NCBI GenBank assembly: GCA_020058765.1
Contig: JAGVDM010000003.1
Span: forward strand, 52,019-116,018
Direction: 5' to 3'
Length of the DNA stretch: 64,000 bases
Origin: Candidatus Peribacterales bacterium
GTDB lineage: Bacteria; Patescibacteriota; Gracilibacteria; Peribacterales; Peribacteraceae
Below are positions 7,066 through 53,199 of the stretch, piece after piece (position 1 is the first letter of the stretch; each line of letters begins with the position of its first letter). Position numbers and translations under genes: made by a program. The notes beneath the pieces were generated by a model. That model was given only the letters and a program-made list of their open reading frames with translations, had not been told where the DNA came from and made no database searches.

Positions 7066-7515
7066 ATGCACATCGCCATTCAACGTATAGATCCATCGCT
7101 CCCACTCCCCCGCTACGAATCTACGGGCGCAGCAGGGTTTGATTTTATTACGCGAGAAGACACCGTCATCGCGCCCGGCGCGATTGGGCTCGTGCCAGGC
7201 AATGTGATTGTGCAGGTACCCAAAGGGTACGCGTTGCTCGTACTCCCACGTTCGTCGCTAGCGCGCAAGAAAGGCCTGGTGTGCCCGCACTCCATTGGCG
7301 TCATCGACCAGGACTACCATGGACCAAAAGACGAGATCTTCGTGCAGGTGCAGAACATCACCCAAGAACCCGTGACCATTGAACGCGGCGAGCGCATTGC
7401 CCAAGGGCTCTTTGTGCGAGTGGATCAGGCAGAGTGGCAAGAGGTAGATGGCCACGGCGCACAGACGCGTGGGGGGTTTGGATCCACGGGGAGTAATTCT
7501 ATCTTGAGAACTTAG
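7066..7515 (+). CDS. dut: dUTP diphosphatase (trimeric dUTPase); the last 8 codons are supplied by the inserted cassette
   Basis: Motifs AAGFDF, GVIDQDYHG and the C-terminal motif V RGGFGSTG are present. The tail SNSILRT follows the 55-bp repeat. Confidence 0.9.
   Translation: MHIAIQRIDPSLPLPRYESTGAAGFDFITREDTVIAPGAIGLVPGNVIVQVPKGYALLVLPRSSLARKKGLVCPHSIGVIDQDYHGPKDEIFVQVQNITQEPVTIERGERIAQGLFVRVDQAEWQEVDGHGAQTRGGFGSTGSNSILRT
7436..7490. repeat. 55-bp direct repeat, left copy (dut 3' coding end)
   Basis: ggcaagaggtagatgGccacggcgcacagacgcgtggggggtttggatccacggg matches 8828-8882 at 54 of 55 positions. Confidence 0.95.
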
Positions 7516-8827: not shown

Positions 8828-8895
8828 GGCAAGAGGTAGATGACCACGGCGCACAGACGCGTGGGGGGTTTGGATCCACGGGTACGCACGCGTAA
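8828..8895 (+). pseudogene. dut: Displaced original 3' end of dut (right 55-bp repeat plus the native terminus ...GFGSTGTHA*)
   Basis: Reading the right repeat in the dut frame gives EVDDHGAQTRGGFGSTGTHA followed by a stop at 8893-8895. Confidence 0.75.
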
Positions 8896-19242: not shown

Positions 19243-20169
19243 ATGCAACTCTTCGCAGGATCTTCCCATCCGGCACTGGCGACCGCGCTCGCAGAGGCCT
19301 TGGGCGCTACGCAGGGGAAAATTGAGCTCAAAACCTTCAGCTGCGGCGAGCAGTATGTGAAGTTTGGCGAGTCTGTACGCGGCAAAGACGTCTACATTCT
19401 GCAAACGGCGACCCGCAACCCCGATCAAGATCTGATGCAGCTCTTCTTGATGTGCCAAGCGGCAAAGCTGAGTTTTGCGGAATCGGTACACGTGATTGTG
19501 CCCTACTTCCCGTACGCACGGCAGGATCGTGTAGCCGAGCCGCGCGAACCGATCTCCGCCAAGCTCGCAGCACATTTGCTGGAGCGCTCTGGTGCAGACC
19601 ACGTGATTACGCTCGACCTACACTCCAGCCAGATCCAGGGCTTCTTTTCCATCCCTGTAGATGCACTGGAAGCTCGCACGATTTTCGCGGACTACTTCCG
19701 TAAGAAGAAGCTCAAAAACCCCGTGATCGTTGCCCCGGATGTGGGCGGAGCCAAGCGCACCAAGAAGTTTGCCGATCTGCTAGGTGCCGATCTGGCGATC
19801 TTGCACAAGACCCGCCCAGAACATCAGAAGTCTGAAATTGTAGAAGTGGTAGGAAATATTGAGGGGCGCACCTGCATTTTATTCGATGACATGATCGACA
19901 CCGCAGGCAGCCTGCTCTCTGCCAAACGTGCATTGGAGCAGCGTGGAGCGAGTGGGGAAATTTACGCTGCGGCAACGCACGCGATCCTCTCGGGTAATGC
20001 AGAAAAGAACCTCAAAGAAGCCGGGTTTACAGAGATCGTGGTTACAGACAGCGTCCCCGTGGATCACTCCATTGCCAAGATGACGGTGCTCCCTATTGCA
20101 CCCCTGCTTGCCCGAGTGGTCACGCATATCGAACGTCGCGAGAGCGTGACGGAAATCTACGAGAATTGA
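19243..20169 (+). CDS. prs: Ribose-phosphate pyrophosphokinase
   Basis: MQLFAGSSHP..., PYFPYARQDR and the PRPP loop DDMIDTAGS are present. Confidence 0.93.
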   Translation: MQLFAGSSHPALATALAEALGATQGKIELKTFSCGEQYVKFGESVRGKDVYILQTATRNPDQDLMQLFLMCQAAKLSFAESVHVIVPYFPYARQDRVAEPREPISAKLAAHLLERSGADHVITLDLHSSQIQGFFSIPVDALEARTIFADYFRKKKLKNPVIVAPDVGGAKRTKKFADLLGADLAILHKTRPEHQKSEIVEVVGNIEGRTCILFDDMIDTAGSLLSAKRALEQRGASGEIYAAATHAILSGNAEKNLKEAGFTEIVVTDSVPVDHSIAKMTVLPIAPLLARVVTHIERRESVTEIYEN

Positions 20170-20240
20170 GAGCACTGAAACCTGCAATCTGGTTTACTGA
20201 CGGAAGTTTGCTACACTTTCGCCAATTTCCCCCTTTTTTC

Positions 20241-20813
20241 ATGTTGAAACGTTCCGTACCGGCAATGATTGCCGCCACGTCCCTGCTGCTCACTGCAGCA
20301 CCAGCTGCAATGGCAGCAAGCACATGCGACACGCTCACGGGTCGCGAGCAGATGCGCTGCGAAATCGCACAGACGCGCCTGAATCGTAATCATCTGCGCT
20401 CTACGCAGGCAGAGGAGCGCTCATCCTTCCGCAGCTCCGCAAAGCAGCGCGTGATGGAGTCCACTCCTGGTGAAGCACGCAGCACCACGGTACGCGACCT
20501 CGGCAACGAGCGCCGCGCACTGCAGCGCATGCACCGCAACCAGCGCAAGACGTTCATCAATGAACTGCGCTCTGATCGTCGTGACTTGATGGAGAATGTC
20601 CGCAACACGCGCCGCGCACAGAAAGAGAACTTCCGCCTGCAGGTAAAAGAGCGCAAAGAGCTCATGCGCTCCACGCTCCAGAAGCGTGCTGCCGTACAGG
20701 AACCAGAAGTGGAAGTAGAGACCGAGGTTGAGACAGAAGTGGAAGTAGAGACCGAGGTTGAGACCGAAACGGAGGTCGAAACCGAGACCGAAACGGAGGA
20801 AAGCGCAGAGTAA
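20241..20813 (+). CDS. Secreted basic coiled-coil protein with an acidic (E-V/T)n repeat tail
   Basis: Signal peptide MLKRSVPAMIAATSLLLTAAPAAMA, an R/K-rich helical middle, and the C-terminal EVEVETEVETEVEVETEVETETEVETETETEE. Confidence 0.65.
   Translation: MLKRSVPAMIAATSLLLTAAPAAMAASTCDTLTGREQMRCEIAQTRLNRNHLRSTQAEERSSFRSSAKQRVMESTPGEARSTTVRDLGNERRALQRMHRNQRKTFINELRSDRRDLMENVRNTRRAQKENFRLQVKERKELMRSTLQKRAAVQEPEVEVETEVETEVEVETEVETETEVETETETEESAE
20706..20800 (+). repeat. Coding tandem repeat (two exact 30-nt units plus degenerate copies)
   Basis: gaagtggaagtagagaccgaggttgagaca occurs at 20706 and again at 20736 (29/30 identical, last base a vs c), followed by degenerate GAA/ACN/GAG units. 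Confidence 0.8.
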
Positions 20814-20833: not shown

Positions 20834-20860
20834 GGCGGGGTCAGAGACCCCGCCTTTTTT
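20834..20860 (+). terminator. Rho-independent terminator
   Basis: GGCGGGGTC-aga-GACCCCGCC followed by TTTTTT. Confidence 0.85.
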
Positions 20861-20960
20861 GTACCAGTTCGCGCAGGAGACGATTGACGCAGTGCACCCG
20901 ATTCGTATGATGGACGCGACGTGCAGGCTCCCGCCTGCGCGTGGTGCTCATTGCATGAAC

Positions 20961-21067
20961 GGGCGATGAGCTCAGCTGGGTCGAGTGCCGCTTGCGGCAC
21001 GAGCCATAAAGAAAAGATGCGACACTGTCGCGCTCACGCTGGGCAATCACACTATCATTCACAACAC
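20961..21067 (+). other. tRNA-Ile 5'-half mimic / leader module, copy 1
   Basis: GGGCGATGAGCTCAGCTGG matches tRNA-Ile nt 1-19 at 18/19 positions. It is followed by the hairpin GTGCCG-CTTG-CGGCAC (20985-21000), the A-rich tract, and the mini-hairpin GCGAC-ACT-GTCGC. The last 42 nt are identical to copy 2. Confidence 0.6.
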
Positions 21068-21173
21068 GGGCGATTAGCTCAGCTGGGCCGAGGATTCTCT
21101 AGAGAATCCGAGCCATAAAAAGAACGCGATCTGTCGCGCTCACGCTGGGCAATCACACTATCATTCACAACAC
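21068..21173 (+). other. tRNA-Ile 5'-half mimic / leader module, copy 2
   Basis: GGGCGATTAGCTCAGCTGG matches 19/19. Its hairpin is GGATTCTC-TA-GAGAATCC (21092-21109), a completely different sequence that is still self-complementary. Confidence 0.6.
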
Positions 21174-21250
21174 GGGCGATTAGCTCAGCTGGTTAGAGCG
21201 CGACACTGATAATGTCGAGGTCCGCAGTTCAAGTCTGCGATCGCCCACCA
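21174..21250 (+). tRNA. tRNA-Ile (anticodon GAT), CCA encoded
   Basis: Hand-folded: GGGCGAT/ATCGCCC acceptor, anticodon arm CGACA-CTGATAA-TGTCG, T arm CGCAG-TTCAAGT-CTGCG. Confidence 0.95.
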
Positions 21251-21307
21251 TTCCATCTCCGGATTGCCCGGTATGTTTTTGACAAATCAATATATACAGT
21301 ATGAAAT

Positions 21308-37968: not shown

Positions 37969-38093
37969 GGAAATGGGGGAAAATAACGCGCCCATGCTAG
38001 TGCCGTGGGAGGGCAATTGACAAGCCAAGAATAGGGAAAAGTTCCGTATTCTCGCTTTGCATAGCGATGGCGCTCCTGCATAATTCGGCGCGT

Positions 38094-38192
38094 GCCACGG
38101 TAGCTCAGTTGGCCGCGTCGACGCTTGCGAGACGCGCAATCAAAGAAACTGTGCTCGGTTGGCTATCGATCTTTCCACTATTGTAGGGACAT
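38094..38192 (+). other. tRNA(CAT) 5'-half mimic / leader module
   Basis: GCCACGGTAGCTCAGTTGG is identical to nt 1-19 of the downstream tRNA. It is followed by the hairpin CGCGTC..CG-CTTG-CG..GACGCG (38114-38136) and the A-rich CAATCAAAGAAAC. Confidence 0.55.
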
Positions 38193-38268
38193 GCCACGGT
38201 AGCTCAGTTGGTAGAGCACGGGACTCATAAGCCCGGGGTCACCAGTTCAATCCTGGTCCGTGGCACCA
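38193..38268 (+). tRNA. tRNA with CAT anticodon (elongator Met or lysidine-dependent Ile2), CCA encoded
   Basis: GCCACGG/CCGTGGC acceptor with a paired G1-C72, so it is not an initiator. The anticodon loop is CTCATAA and the T arm is ACCAG-TTCAATC-CTGGT. There is an A31/G39 mismatch in the anticodon stem. Confidence 0.9.
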
Positions 38269-38289
38269 TCAAGATGTATTAGACCCACT

Positions 38290-38598
38290 ATGCAAAATCC
38301 GACTGAATATCGTGGCCCCACCATTCAATTGTCACCCATCTTTGAGGGGTCTGATGGACGTCCTTCTGTAATGTTTTGGACCGAAAAGACGCGGGGAAGT
38401 GTTATGGGGATACTCCAATATCACGAAGATAGCGGATGGATACTGGCACAACGGCACCCATGGACCGAGTACGATATTCCAGACTACATCATCGAACAGG
38501 CTCCTGTAGCTGCCGATGTTCAATACCCCAATGGCATTGGCTCACACTACAATCCTTCACACCCGCTTGGACATCCACAGAGTCGAGATTTGCCCTGA
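38290..38598 (+). CDS. Hypothetical protein inside the tRNA-flanked 376-bp segment
   Basis: ORF MQNPTEYRGPTIQ... with no recognisable motif. Confidence 0.35.
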   Translation: MQNPTEYRGPTIQLSPIFEGSDGRPSVMFWTEKTRGSVMGILQYHEDSGWILAQRHPWTEYDIPDYIIEQAPVAADVQYPNGIGSHYNPSHPLGHPQSRDLP

Positions 38599-38644: not shown

Positions 38645-38659
38645 TGGTCCGTGGCACCA
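38645..38659 (+). repeat. 15-nt direct repeat of the tRNA(CAT) 3' end (att-like)
   Basis: TGGTCCGTGGCACCA is identical to 38254-38268. Confidence 0.85.
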
Positions 38660-38789
38660 CGATACTTGTAAGCCACGCTCGCTCAGTTGCCACCGGTGGA
38701 GCCGCAAAAGGCTTGGATCGCAGTCCTCACAGAGGAGTCCGTAATGCTACAAACTGTAGTAACTTGCTGTGTGATGATACGATTGAAAC

Positions 38790-51498: not shown

Positions 51499-53199
51499 TT
51501 ACATGCGGTCGGGCATGCGGAGCGTAAGAAGTTCTGCTCCACAGCGGAGGACCTTGGCCGTAAGGGAAGTGAGCGCCAAGCGCAGATCACGCGTAGTACC
51601 CTGCGCCGTCAAAATCGGATCGGCGTTATAAAATGCGTTGTAACTCTGGCAGAGCGCGTACAGATAATTCGCAAGAATATGCGGCATGTGCTCTTTACGT
51701 GCCTGCTGTAGCGCATCTGCAAAACCTACGAGTGTATTCACTACATCACGTTCATGCGCGGAGAGTGCCTCCGCCTTTTTGGGGAGTGCAACAGTCTCCA
51801 TCTCCGCCTTGCGCAGCACTGAGCATGCGCGGGCGTGCGTGTACTGGAGGTAGGGGGCGCTGTTGCCCTCAAAGCTCAGCATTTTTTCCCAATCGAAGAC
51901 AATCTCCTGCTTGCGATTTTGGCTCAAAATGCCGTACACAAGTGCGCCAACACCCATCATTTCGGCAAGAGCATCTGCATCATCTGTCTGGATCGCTTCA
52001 CCGCGATCGGCAATCACTTTGGCAGCACGCGCTACTCCCTCTTGGAGCACCTGCTCAAGACTGAGAATGTTCCCTTTCCGCGTACTCATAGACGAGTCTG
52101 CAAACCGCATGCGACCGAACAGCACATTCTGGAAACGCGGGAGCTCCCAGCCAAGCATGACGCATGTTTCCACAAGCTGCTCAAAGTGCAGCTTCTGCGC
52201 GATATCGGTGAAAATGAGGATCTCCTGCGGATTATAGGTATCAATGCGGTAACGCATTTGTGCCAGATCGCGCGTGGAGTAGAGCGTTGCACCGTCGCCC
52301 TTGAGCACCAAGTACGGCGGCATGTTCTTGTCTTCCGGGAATTGCACAATGAGCGCTCCCCCTTCGCCCTCGGTGAACACTGCTTTCTTTTTTCCTTCCG
52401 CGAGAACGGGTGCCATTTTGTCTTCGTAGAAACTCTCGCCGAGATCTAGATCAAAGCGAACGTGCAAGCGGCTGTATACATCTGCCAATGACGCTTTTGT
52501 CACTGCGACAACATCTGCCCAGAATGTGCGAAGTGTTTTGTCTCCGCTTTCCAATGCGCGAAACGCCTCTCGACCCTGTTCTTCGAGCGATGCATCTTTT
52601 TCTACCTCATCATGAAACCGCACATAGAGCGCGAGTAATTCATCGATCGTATGATCTTTGACGGACTTTTTCCCTCCCCACTTTTCATACGCAACGGCCA
52701 GTTTGCCGAACTGCGTTCCCCAGTCGCCGATGTAGTTCCAGCGAATCACCTTGTAGCCCGCATGTTGGTACAAATTCGCTGTCGCTTGCCCAACAACTGT
52801 CCCAATTAAGTGATGCACACCAAGCGGCTTGGCAATATTCGGCTGGGAGTACTCCACGATCACTGGTGCCTCCTTGCGCTCTGCAATCGCCTCACTCGCA
52901 ACGATACTGCTCTGCAATCGCTCCAAATGCCCCTCTGGGCTCAACCAAACGTTTATATATCCCGGTCCGGCGATCTCCACCTTCTCCACGCCCGGTTGCC
53001 CTTGGAGGGACGTGAGCAATTCCTGTGCAATCTCCACAGGCTTCGCCCCCACCTGCTTGGCAATCTGCAACGCAACCGGCGTAGCAATGTCACCATGCGC
53101 AGCGTCGCTCGGGCGGCTCCATGTGACTACAACATCATTGAGCCCCCTCGTCTTTTTGAGGGCGTTTTGGATGGCCGAATTCCACCGATTAATTACCAT
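51499..53199 (-). CDS. argS: Arginyl-tRNA synthetase
   Basis: HIGH-type motif (PLGVHHLIGT), MSTRKG in place of KMSK, and a DALR-type C-terminal anticodon-binding domain. Confidence 0.95.
   Translation of the reverse strand: MVINRWNSAIQNALKKTRGLNDVVVTWSRPSDAAHGDIATPVALQIAKQVGAKPVEIAQELLTSLQGQPGVEKVEIAGPGYINVWLSPEGHLERLQSSIVASEAIAERKEAPVIVEYSQPNIAKPLGVHHLIGTVVGQATANLYQHAGYKVIRWNYIGDWGTQFGKLAVAYEKWGGKKSVKDHTIDELLALYVRFHDEVEKDASLEEQGREAFRALESGDKTLRTFWADVVAVTKASLADVYSRLHVRFDLDLGESFYEDKMAPVLAEGKKKAVFTEGEGGALIVQFPEDKNMPPYLVLKGDGATLYSTRDLAQMRYRIDTYNPQEILIFTDIAQKLHFEQLVETCVMLGWELPRFQNVLFGRMRFADSSMSTRKGNILSLEQVLQEGVARAAKVIADRGEAIQTDDADALAEMMGVGALVYGILSQNRKQEIVFDWEKMLSFEGNSAPYLQYTHARACSVLRKAEMETVALPKKAEALSAHERDVVNTLVGFADALQQARKEHMPHILANYLYALCQSYNAFYNADPILTAQGTTRDLRLALTSLTAKVLRCGAELLTLRMPDRM

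Follow-up and report, generated by a model that had tools for sequence, protein, structure and literature searches.

Modules built of sense and antisense tRNA pieces in certain tRNA leaders of Candidatus Peribacteria

The 64-kb window analysed here (64,000 nucleotides of contig JAGVDM010000003.1, assembly GCA_020058765.1, Candidatus Peribacterales bacterium; positions 52,019 to 116,018, forward strand) carries two head-to-tail units immediately 5' of its tRNA-Ile(GAT) gene. These units belong to a lineage-specific family of modules of ~95-120 nucleotides (nt), present singly or in short tandem arrays in certain tRNA leaders of, so far, Candidatus Peribacteria. Each module is a chimera of six parts: a copy of nt 1-19 of the tRNA, a non-tRNA hairpin, a linker, a short sense piece (tRNA nt ~24-32), an antisense piece (nt ~31-16), and a G-poor spacer. 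The hairpin covaries, the two strands are asymmetric in their features, the modules are conserved above their flanks, and their antisense pieces have the potential for alternative pairing with the tRNA. The reading that we tentatively favour, giving it not quite an even chance, is that of a selected, co-transcribed 5'-leader RNA module which would offer decoy and antisense partners to the tRNA, and may gate its folding or its processing by RNase P.

Anatomy of the modules in the window

Five tRNA genes were identified in the window by ARAGORN and Rfam: Ile(GAT), Val(GAC), Met(CAT), Lys and Leu. The first three are preceded by modules, and no module was found upstream of tRNA-Lys and tRNA-Leu. 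The window encodes PRPP synthetase, TruB and RecF, indicating that it is cellular genome. The features of the three loci are the following (R1, covariance model score; z, fold z-score against shuffles).

20961-21067, + strand: Ile module 1, 107 nt; R1 66.8 bits at 20968-21018; z -2.21
20961-20979, + strand: module 1, sense copy of tRNA-Ile nt 1-19, 1 mismatch (T8>G)
20985-21000, + strand: module 1, variable hairpin P2 (GTGCCG-CTTG-CGGCAC), with CGA (20982-20984) and GAG (21001-21003) on either side
21006-21018, + strand: module 1, purine-rich linker ATAAAGAAAAGAT
21019-21035, + strand: module 1, fold-back; sense copy of tRNA nt ~26-34 (GCGACACTG) overlapping antisense TGTCGCGCTC
21036-21067, + strand: module 1, tail poor in G, up to the next tRNA-like +1; TATCAT at 21053-21058, CTGGGCAATC at 21039-21048
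21068-21173, + strand: Ile module 2, 106 nt; R1 67.6 bits at 21075-21127; z -3.24
21068-21086, + strand: module 2, copy of tRNA-Ile nt 1-19, 0 mismatches
21092-21109, + strand: module 2, hairpin GGATTCTC-TA-GAGAATCC, perfect stem
21115-21125, + strand: module 2, linker; followed by the fold-back (21126-21141) and the tail (to 21173)
21174-21250, + strand: tRNA-Ile(GAT), complete, CCA encoded; Rfam 69.7 bits, ARAGORN
1687-1785, + strand: Val module, 99 nt; R1 68.8 bits; z -1.96
1687-1705, + strand: Val module, nt 1-19 copy
1711-1728, + strand: Val module, hairpin GGATCCGC-CT-GCGGATCC
1734-1744, + strand: Val module, linker; followed by the fold-back (~1743-1755)
1786-1862, + strand: tRNA-Val(GAC); ARAGORN, Rfam
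38094-38192, + strand: Met module, a looser variant, 99 nt; R1 just 15.9 bits; z -0.27
38094-38112, + strand: Met module, nt 1-19 copy
38114-38136, + strand: Met module, hairpin CGCGTC-GA-CGCTTGC-GA-GACGCG; followed by an A-rich tract (38137-38149)
38193-38268, + strand: tRNA-Met(CAT); ARAGORN, Rfam

Both Ile modules follow the same order: the nt 1-19 copy, G(T/C)CGA, a perfect hairpin, GAGCCATAAA, an A-rich tract, a small hairpin and the tail. An earlier note on this DNA, made from the sequence alone, had delimited the same two head-to-tail units upstream of the tRNA that ARAGORN and Rfam place at 21174-21250, and was right that they are not tRNA genes: ARAGORN made no call on them, Rfam gave no tRNA match on 20961-21173 either at the gathering score or at E<=10, and the T-arm, the acceptor 3' strand and the anticodon loop are absent. 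A 62-nt block is 100% identical between the two copies (21025-21086 and 21131-21192), and the 44 nt between the block copies are almost wholly different. The shared tail is identical and ends exactly at +1, as had been described, but it measures 43 nt instead of 42, its identity beginning within the small hairpin. The small hairpin, previously likened to an anticodon stem that lost its loop, does exist (GCGAT-CT-GTCGC in module 2, including a G.U pair), but is better described as tRNA nt ~24-32 folded onto an antisense copy: TGTCGCGCTC (21026-21035) is the reverse complement of tRNA-Ile GAGCGCGACA, raw positions 23-32. Likewise, the term tRNA 5'-half mimic is apt for the nt 1-19 copy but understates the design, given that the D-arm and the anticodon-stem 5' strand are also present in antisense. 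A small open reading frame (ORF) in Ile module 1 was dismissed, being created solely by T8>G and not conserved.

The architecture recurs at two other tRNA genes of the window, as had been noticed before, with a canonical unit at tRNA-Val and the looser variant at tRNA-Met. CTGAGC in the Val module (1760-1765) is complementary to tRNA nt 10-15, and GTGCTC in the Met module (38151-38156) is antisense to tRNA nt 22-27. At both loci the duplication covers ~20-21 nt (-1/-2 to +19), the upstream region not being included. Within the window, CGA-hairpin-GAG sites with stems of 7-8 pairs occur solely at three places, all of them at the loci above, and neither the covariance model nor the flank-plus-hairpin scan found orphan modules away from tRNAs.

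Covariation, distribution and conservation of the family

The earlier note had argued that the hairpin was exchanged between the Ile units with its pairing retained under structural selection, and the family bears this out. In an alignment of 29 distinct cores with eight proposed pairs, 92.2% of the cells were paired compared to 69.8% in shuffles (0 of 500 shuffles reached the observed value) and the covariation score was 0.594 compared to 0.214, shuffle statistics which overstate independence since the aligned sequences are related. Changes on both sides were found in six of the eight pairs, sliding the 3' partners by 1-3 columns lowered the pairing to 22-53%, and RNAalifold recovered the identical helix. 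These results support selection on the pairing of the hairpin, the sequence of the stem being free: 26 different hairpin sequences are present among the 29 cores, and certain types are shared across tRNAs and genomes (GGATTCTC..GAGAATCC at the window Ile locus, L068 Asp and L148 Ala). The internal mismatches of the hairpins were T.G (5, of which 3 are probably a bulged T), G.A or A.G (5) and G.G (2), with no A.C or pyrimidine-pyrimidine mismatch among those of the cores. These types would be tolerated if it is the tRNA-sense strand that folds, and are the worst for the other strand.

The apex CTTG is present in 10 of the 29 hairpins, on at least five unrelated stems, and the CGA and GAG flanks are invariant across the cores. 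It is plausible that these flanks form a symmetric 5'-CGAG/3'-GAGC tandem G.A motif, on the + strand only, in columns too invariant to covary. Such a symmetric internal motif would fit better than a kink-turn, in which a Watson-Crick C stem and a 3-nt bulge precede tandem sheared G.A/A.G pairs that open the NC stem, and which is unlikely: in the kink-turn register the nucleotide 5' of the 3-nt bulge (G19) faces the G after GA, and no C stem forms. Other candidates for the hairpin region were discarded: a hammerhead-like three-way junction having G.A beside stem II (its strand at the junction reads CUGGGUCGA instead of CUGANGA, and Rfam gave no match); a T-loop/T-arm origin of GGGTCGAG(TCCCG), suggestive for one hairpin type alone and not cognate-derived; and CGAG..CGAG as the target-site duplication of a mini-insertion, inseparable from the symmetric tandem-G.A motif.

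The earlier note had proposed a covariance-model search beyond the window, and homologous modules are present at other tRNA loci and in Peribacteria genomes. A collection with one genome per species was scanned with the core AGCTCAGCTGGGYCGAG, and metagenomes with the core plus the 3' flank. Each of the 29 distinct cores lies immediately 5' of a tRNA whose nt 1-19 matches. The labelled true units are from Candidatus Peribacteria (L004, L020, L048, L053, L068, L069, L104, L105, L110, L113), with one related case outside Peribacteria, in a Saccharibacteria metagenome-assembled genome (L118); the remaining core matches are chance matches in coding DNA of GC-rich organisms. The metagenome scan gave ~14 further loci on unlabelled contigs, and no module was found in the viral contigs, phages and plasmids searched. 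The only variants found without the core were the Met module and the tRNA-Arg module of L137. The host tRNAs are Val (GAC, TAC, CAC), Ile (GAT and one called TAT by ARAGORN), Ala (TGC, GGC), Asp, Trp and Arg; their confinement to tRNAs with a AGCTCAGCTGG D-arm is in part an ascertainment effect. Over 211 kb, covariance model R1 and the flank-plus-hairpin scan located copies solely directly 5' of tRNAs.

The units are 93-122 nt long and form arrays of 1-3, in which distal copies are more degenerate; a Val(TAC) subgroup does not have the small hairpin. Array copy numbers are minimum estimates, because assemblies break or hold N gaps in the arrays: L069 has an N gap within its module array (~100-195), and in an exact-protein look-up for strain-level copy number the sole other contig breaks inside the repeat, the upstream protein not being on record. 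The Logan contig L183 (1-20) starts 11 nt before a tRNA-Ile, an assembly break inside the array. The arrays thus break short-read assemblies and the unit copies could mislead tRNA annotation; the core AGCTCAGCTGGGYCGAG..CGAGC may in turn help to flag Peribacteria contigs.

Synteny of the tRNA-Val(GAC) locus extends over seven genomes, each carrying at least one unit, in which the flanking proteins are 30-42% identical to those of the window. When the Val and Ile loci of the window are taken together, the flanking genes in common with Peribacteria loci have 30-63% protein identity, which places the window in a relative of these organisms and bears out the origin in the candidate phyla radiation supposed in the earlier note. 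Among L004, L113, L020 and L104, which form a clade, the proximal units of the Val locus match at 88-89% identity along their entire length, compared to ~68-77% for the flanking coding DNA, and the units of the two-unit Val array are orthologous one by one between L004 and L104. Between the window and L105, whose neighbouring prs protein is 63% identical, the linker and the fold-back are nearly identical (GAGCCATAAAAAGAACGCGA..TGTCGCGCTC), and the hairpins are wholly different. Turnover is also observed: L119 and L123 share the flanks and the tRNA and differ in the hairpin and the tail; a tRNA-Arg(GCG) unit is present in L137 and there is none in L148; and old copies gain extra hairpins (the L137 distal unit, L155 and L118).

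This turnover bears on a neutral explanation, under which slipped or template-switch duplications would arise at the repetitive, quasi-palindromic D-arm and leave behind partial copies, direct and inverted, the palindromes would be both created and kept perfect by intrastrand template switching, and the arrays would persist for being harmless. The decay of distal units, the accumulation of extra hairpins, the variation of unit number and content among relatives (L119 and L123, L137 and L148, and also L174 unit 1), and the identical 62-nt block beside 44 almost wholly different nucleotides in the window all agree with such an origin, and the fold-back prolongs the natural anticodon stem in the way expected of template switching at a quasi-palindrome. 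We nevertheless consider this explanation improbable, given that the proximal units are better conserved than the flanking coding DNA, both units of the Val array are orthologous between L004 and L104, and the CGA/GAG flanks, the linker and the CUUG-type apex are kept across tRNA identities and across genomes with flanking proteins only 30-63% identical, and given that strand-specific mismatch types and the G depletion described below are not predicted by upkeep of palindromes at the DNA level.

Antisense tRNA pieces and their possible role in the leader

The small hairpin is a junction at which a sense copy of tRNA nt ~24-32 is followed by an antisense copy running from nt ~31 back to 16 or beyond, and covering the anticodon-stem 5' strand, the D-stem and the D-loop. 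Exact antisense matches to the cognate tRNA span 9-19 nt in most canonical units (TGTCGCGCTC in the two Ile modules of the window; GTGTCGCGCTCTAACCAG, 18 nt, in L105; TGGCGCTCTAGCCAGCTGA, 19 nt, in L128). The antisense letters track the cognate D-loop nt 20-21 in 10 of 10 units from at least seven different tRNA loci, reading TAA for a cognate TTA and TAG for a cognate CTA. The module's own D-loop copy is GTCGA at this point, indicating that the antisense piece matches the real tRNA and not the sense copy of the module; in L113 and in window Ile unit 2, whose sense copies have drifted, the fit of the antisense copy to the tRNA persists. No such antisense stretch was found in unit-less tRNA leaders, which rules it out as a general trait of Peribacteria tRNA leaders.

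The duplex between the 3' part of the leader and tRNA nt 8-36 had a mean z of -3.4, reaching -41 and -44 kcal/mol in L105 and L128. When unit and tRNA were folded together, the minimum-energy fold contained 19-49 unit-tRNA pairs in 23 of 23 loci, and was 0.8-18.8 kcal/mol lower in energy than unit and tRNA folded separately. In the joint fold, the tRNA 3' strand has the upstream acceptor 5' copy as its partner, and the antisense piece covers the D-arm and the anticodon-stem strand. A makes up 58% of the linker over the family as a whole. In the tails, the last 25 nt have a G content of 10.5% compared to 26.6% in the window, and C stays at 28%, a sense-strand bias that fits an unstructured spacer.

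Two other roles for short motifs of the leader were considered. The boxA element of antitermination leaders of the rrn/lambda type, with a consensus of about UGCUCUUUAACA, is bound by NusB-NusE and lies beside a variable hairpin. The GCUCUAACC of the antisense stretch resembles it, but switches to GCUCUAGCC or GCUCGCC exactly in accordance with the cognate D-loop, and was therefore taken as antisense tRNA, an antitermination signal being unlikely. A leader-trailer processing stem was rejected, as it is not general (mean z of -0.5 over 23 loci, significant at the window Ile locus and L119 alone). At the former, CTGGGCAATC of both Ile tails (21039-21048 and 21145-21154) is complementary to the trailer GATTGCCCGG (21262-21271, + strand), with a duplex z of -5.0.

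The signals predicted around the Ile and Met modules are the following.

20884-20911, + strand: sigma-70-like promoter TTGACG-16-TATGAT, predicted start ~20918; 10/12 consensus matches, shuffles mean 0.3 sites
38056-38084, + strand: sigma-70-like promoter TTTGCA-17-CATAAT, its end 10 nt before the Met module
20836-20866, + strand: intrinsic terminator of ORF 20166-20813, GGCGGGGTC-AGA-GACCCCGCC followed by TTTTTTG

The promoter at 20884-20911 would presumably drive both Ile units together with the tRNA. No hairpin followed by a T-run was found on the + strand inside the arrays; this was judged by direct reading, the terminator scan having overlooked the obvious + strand terminator at 20836-20866. 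The main hairpin is followed on the + strand by GAGCCAUAAAGAAAAG and not by a T-run, which discards it as an intrinsic terminator of the transcribed strand.

Tails often hold a -10-like box and no -35, and this raises an alternative at the DNA level. The units would be promoter modules, with the A-rich tract as an UP element, the box in the tail as the -10 and the first 19 transcribed nucleotides carried along; tandem promoters would raise the expression of a single-copy tRNA gene, and the hairpin would be a passenger or an insulator. TANNNT boxes are often found 10-20 nt before +1 (TATCAT in the window Ile units), TATCAT/TATTAT is conserved in the L004/L113/L020/L104 clade, TGCTATAAT is exactly duplicated in L136, and the duplication takes in 14-40 nt of upstream sequence at L136, L105 and L123. 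The UP elements of E. coli rRNA and tRNA promoters lie at about -60 to -44, and the A-rich tract, ~31-35 nt upstream of the tail box, would occupy roughly these positions for a start near +1. On the other hand, there is no acceptable -35 to accompany the tail boxes and the scan finds promoters solely upstream of the arrays, the window Val tail and several others do not have a -10-like box, and the window Val and Met loci duplicate just the ~20-21 nt mentioned above. The covarying hairpin, the mismatch asymmetry in favour of the + strand, the G-poor bias and the cognate-tracking antisense piece would also be left unexplained. Promoter modules are an unlikely explanation.

The small hairpin together with its T-run is terminator-like on the minus strand, where the terminator scan flags 21141-21122, 21031-21019 and 1758-1743, and relatives such as L004 and L104 have a GC hairpin followed by T5-6 (direct reading). 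Minus-strand terminators stopping antisense transcription from the tRNA side, the rest of the module being incidental, are however an extremely unlikely purpose: they would be effective only once the polymerase had crossed the whole tRNA gene; the Ile locus has no minus-strand gene needing protection; their stem derives from the tRNA and is specific to the cognate one, neither of which a terminator calls for; the Val(TAC) subgroup does without the small hairpin; and the main hairpin and the nt 1-19 copy would be unexplained.

Coming back to the favoured reading of a co-transcribed leader module, the following sequence of events can be proposed. The array would arise by local duplication at the tRNA 5' end, its proximal copy being kept matched by gene conversion or recent duplication, and would be transcribed together with the tRNA from the upstream promoter. 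The module would fold first onto itself, its own sense pieces occupying the antisense stretch and leaving the tRNA free to form its cloverleaf, and the G-poor spacer, single-stranded, would then be accessible to RNase P, which would release the leader. Alternatively, the antisense stretch would pair with the real D-arm and anticodon-stem strand, and the acceptor 5' copy with the tRNA 3' acceptor strand, giving a locked precursor. A factor acting on the hairpin or the linker could shift the balance between both folds and so tune the supply of that tRNA. This most specific version, a natural riboregulator whose anti-tRNA strand and decoy switch the precursor between processable and locked under the control of a factor, tuning the supply of a single-copy tRNA at a stage after transcription, is a speculative model that we regard as possible yet doubtful. 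In bacteria, it is usually to the promoter that the control of tRNA supply is assigned. If the modules acted as proposed, they would be the first natural pre-tRNA leader, made of sense and antisense pieces of its own tRNA, that decides the maturation of the precursor.

Several observations weigh against this interpretation. The exact core was required in both scans, so that the invariance of the core is partly ascertainment. The nt 1-19 copy drifts in distal units (three mismatches in L068 and three in L104 unit 1), and the pairing of the decoy is not strictly maintained given this drift of the acceptor-strand copy; one unit (L174 unit 1) has no hairpin, and near-perfect palindromes can also be maintained by template switching at the DNA level. 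The helices other than the hairpin consist of invariant or tRNA-derived columns with no independent covariation, and their complementarity could arise simply from one strand being an inverted tRNA copy. The pairing of module nt 8-24 with its own 3' part is barely above shuffles family-wide (mean z of -0.7), and the antisense matches of the variant Met and Arg modules are just 6 nt and not significant. The modules do fold somewhat better than their shuffles (z of -2.2 and -3.2 for Ile and -2.0 for Val, with -0.3 for the Met variant), but in Ile unit 2 the two strands fold equally well (minus-strand z of -2.97); the minimum-energy folds, moreover, ignore co-transcriptional kinetics. Finally, co-transcription, processing, the switch and a protein partner are steps that we infer from the DNA alone.

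Among the three roles suggested in the earlier note (a leader related to processing or RNase P, a decoy for tRNA-binding factors, and a recombination scar), the first fits best; a plain recombination scar is the poorest fit, since the flanking coding DNA is less conserved than the units. Without any such function the modules would still be a well-defined and strongly covarying non-coding element, specific to a lineage of the candidate phyla radiation (CPR), conserved above its neighbouring genes and with no entry in Rfam.

Comparison with known elements and remnants of modules

No named RNA class fits the modules, in agreement with the earlier note: there was no match in Rfam and none in the literature searched. 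Among the 4227 models of Rfam 15, which comprise T-boxes, riboswitches, self-cleaving ribozymes and leaders, the best non-tRNA scores on 20850-21300 were 10-25 bits, compared to thresholds of 49-79, and none of these matches overlaps a module meaningfully. Known DNA elements were also discarded. Against repeats of the miniature inverted-repeat transposable element (MITE) or repetitive extragenic palindrome (REP) type, the copies found in 211 kb are solely 5' of tRNAs, and no terminal inverted repeats were seen on reading the units; REP, bacterial interspersed mosaic elements (BIME) and MITE resemble the modules in being short, repeated, hairpin-forming and non-coding with variable copy number, but are dispersed as near-identical copies, whereas the modules are tailored to each tRNA. 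A CRISPR array was rejected since there are 2-3 copies whose variable parts are one hairpin-plus-linker design, with no CRISPR-like periodic array in the repeat output. Integron attC sites are imperfect palindromes beside cassette ORFs and an IntI integrase, and have a box consensus of RYYYAAC..GTTRRRY, with R''/L''..L'/R' boxes; the module flanks, G(T/C)CGA and GAGC, are not the attC core, and there are no cassettes and, in the ORFs checked, no integrase.

Direct repeats of a tRNA segment flanking an insert are a signature of tRNA-targeted integration, and the resulting fragments can confuse tRNA annotation (PMC9897764). The units might be integration scars or miniature integrative elements which recombined in the tRNA 5' part, leaving an att-core (nt 1-19) and element ends. 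As in att-site tRNA fragments, a tRNA segment is directly repeated beside the intact gene, the repeat at the window Val and Met loci is just ~20 nt, and tRNA-Met has a copy of its 3' end 380 nt downstream. In the known cases, however, the repeats enclose kb-scale, integrase-carrying elements and are usually of the 3' part of the tRNA, whereas the modules repeat the 5' 19 nt at a spacing of 93-122 nt (99-107 nt in the window) around ~80-nt inserts with no ORF, a covarying architecture and an antisense tRNA piece, that is, tRNA sequence particular to the cognate and lying outside the repeat. The ORFs checked near the three loci had no integrase, transposase or cas-like domain, there was no match among viral contigs, phages and plasmids, and length and internal order are uniform at every locus, unlike deletion scars. 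An att-site fragment was therefore rejected, and integration scars in general are a very unlikely origin.

In its working, the family would most resemble a leader gate on RNase P, so far of synthetic design, and in its origin it looks most like a partial tRNA duplication; it belongs to no known family. A designed leader hairpin can gate RNase P cleavage of a pre-tRNA in E. coli (PMC7897497). In both systems a structured 5' leader would decide the quality of the RNase P substrate by alternative pairings, but the designed riboswitch is synthetic and ligand-driven and masks nt -1 to -4, whereas in the modules the spacer beside +1 is G-poor and predicted to be open, and the competing pairs are in the tRNA body and the acceptor strand. 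No natural leader-gated RNase P case was found in the literature searched, and the gating principle thus exists so far as a designed device alone. T-box leaders have conserved hairpins, G.A motifs, a purine-rich linker and mutually exclusive helices. The modules share this structured leader and its exclusive-helix logic; T-boxes, however, precede mRNAs, bind a separate tRNA by specifier and acceptor contacts and end in a terminator/antiterminator, none of which applies to the modules.

Disrupted tRNA genes of archaea and some eukaryotes, which include non-canonical introns and split or permuted genes, have been reviewed (PMC4090602, PMC4033280). They share with the modules the presence of extra sequence at the D-loop region of a tRNA-like sequence, and the tRNA-like genes of the related loci L155 and L118 are interrupted there; in contrast, a complete and uninterrupted tRNA follows each window unit, and the hosts are bacterial. 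No bulge-helix-bulge motif was seen on reading the units, a systematic search for it not having been made. The modules show that tRNA genes spawn and remodel partial copies of themselves, which bears on the origin of disrupted, split and intron-bearing tRNA genes.

Remnants and rearranged copies were observed at several loci. On the minus strand of L118 (~4205-3930), a tRNA with anticodon UCA apparently has two interruptions: an insert of ~85 nt after the D-loop GGGTC, with a module-like CGA-hairpin-GAG (R1 27 bits), and a second insert in the anticodon loop, with 13-bp inverted repeats at its ends (CCCCGTTACAAAT/ATTTGTAACGGGG), which encloses a complete tRNA-Val(CAC). When both inserts were removed by hand, a clean cloverleaf resulted, called tRNA-SeC(tca) by ARAGORN. 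At L155 (1-170), a tRNA-Val-like pseudogene without the acceptor 5' strand lies behind the 3' end of a tRNA-Val; its D loop carries the module hairpin and its anticodon stem a second one (CGTCACGCTTTGGCGTGAC), it also contains an A-rich insert, and its 3' half is intact, CCA included. It may represent a stage between module and tRNA, or a recombinant of the two. On the minus strand of L137 (~6310-6250 and ~7040-6990), the distal Ala module has an additional hairpin, CCCACC..GGTGGG, nested between nt 13 and 14 of the D-stem, and behind the tRNA-Arg(GCG) gene there is a fused 5'+3' fragment of that tRNA beside a GAGAATTCTC palindrome.

In the window, a 14-nt copy of the tRNA-Met 3' end (GGTCCGTGGCACCA, 38646-38659) lies ~380 nt downstream of tRNA-Met and is followed by a degenerate module-like piece, GCCACGCTCGCTCAGTTG-CCACCGGTGG-AGCCGCAAAAGG (38672-38711); the ORF at 38260-38598, between tRNA-Met and this copy, has no Pfam match. 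Two further repeats were recorded. A 30-nt tandem repeat (20704-20786; 2.8 copies, 88% matches) lies within the 3' end of ORF 20166-20813, which has no Pfam match, and codes for a Glu/Val/Thr-rich repeat; and a 55-nt direct repeat (7436-7490 and 8828-8882) is 98% identical, its copies lying 1392 nt apart.

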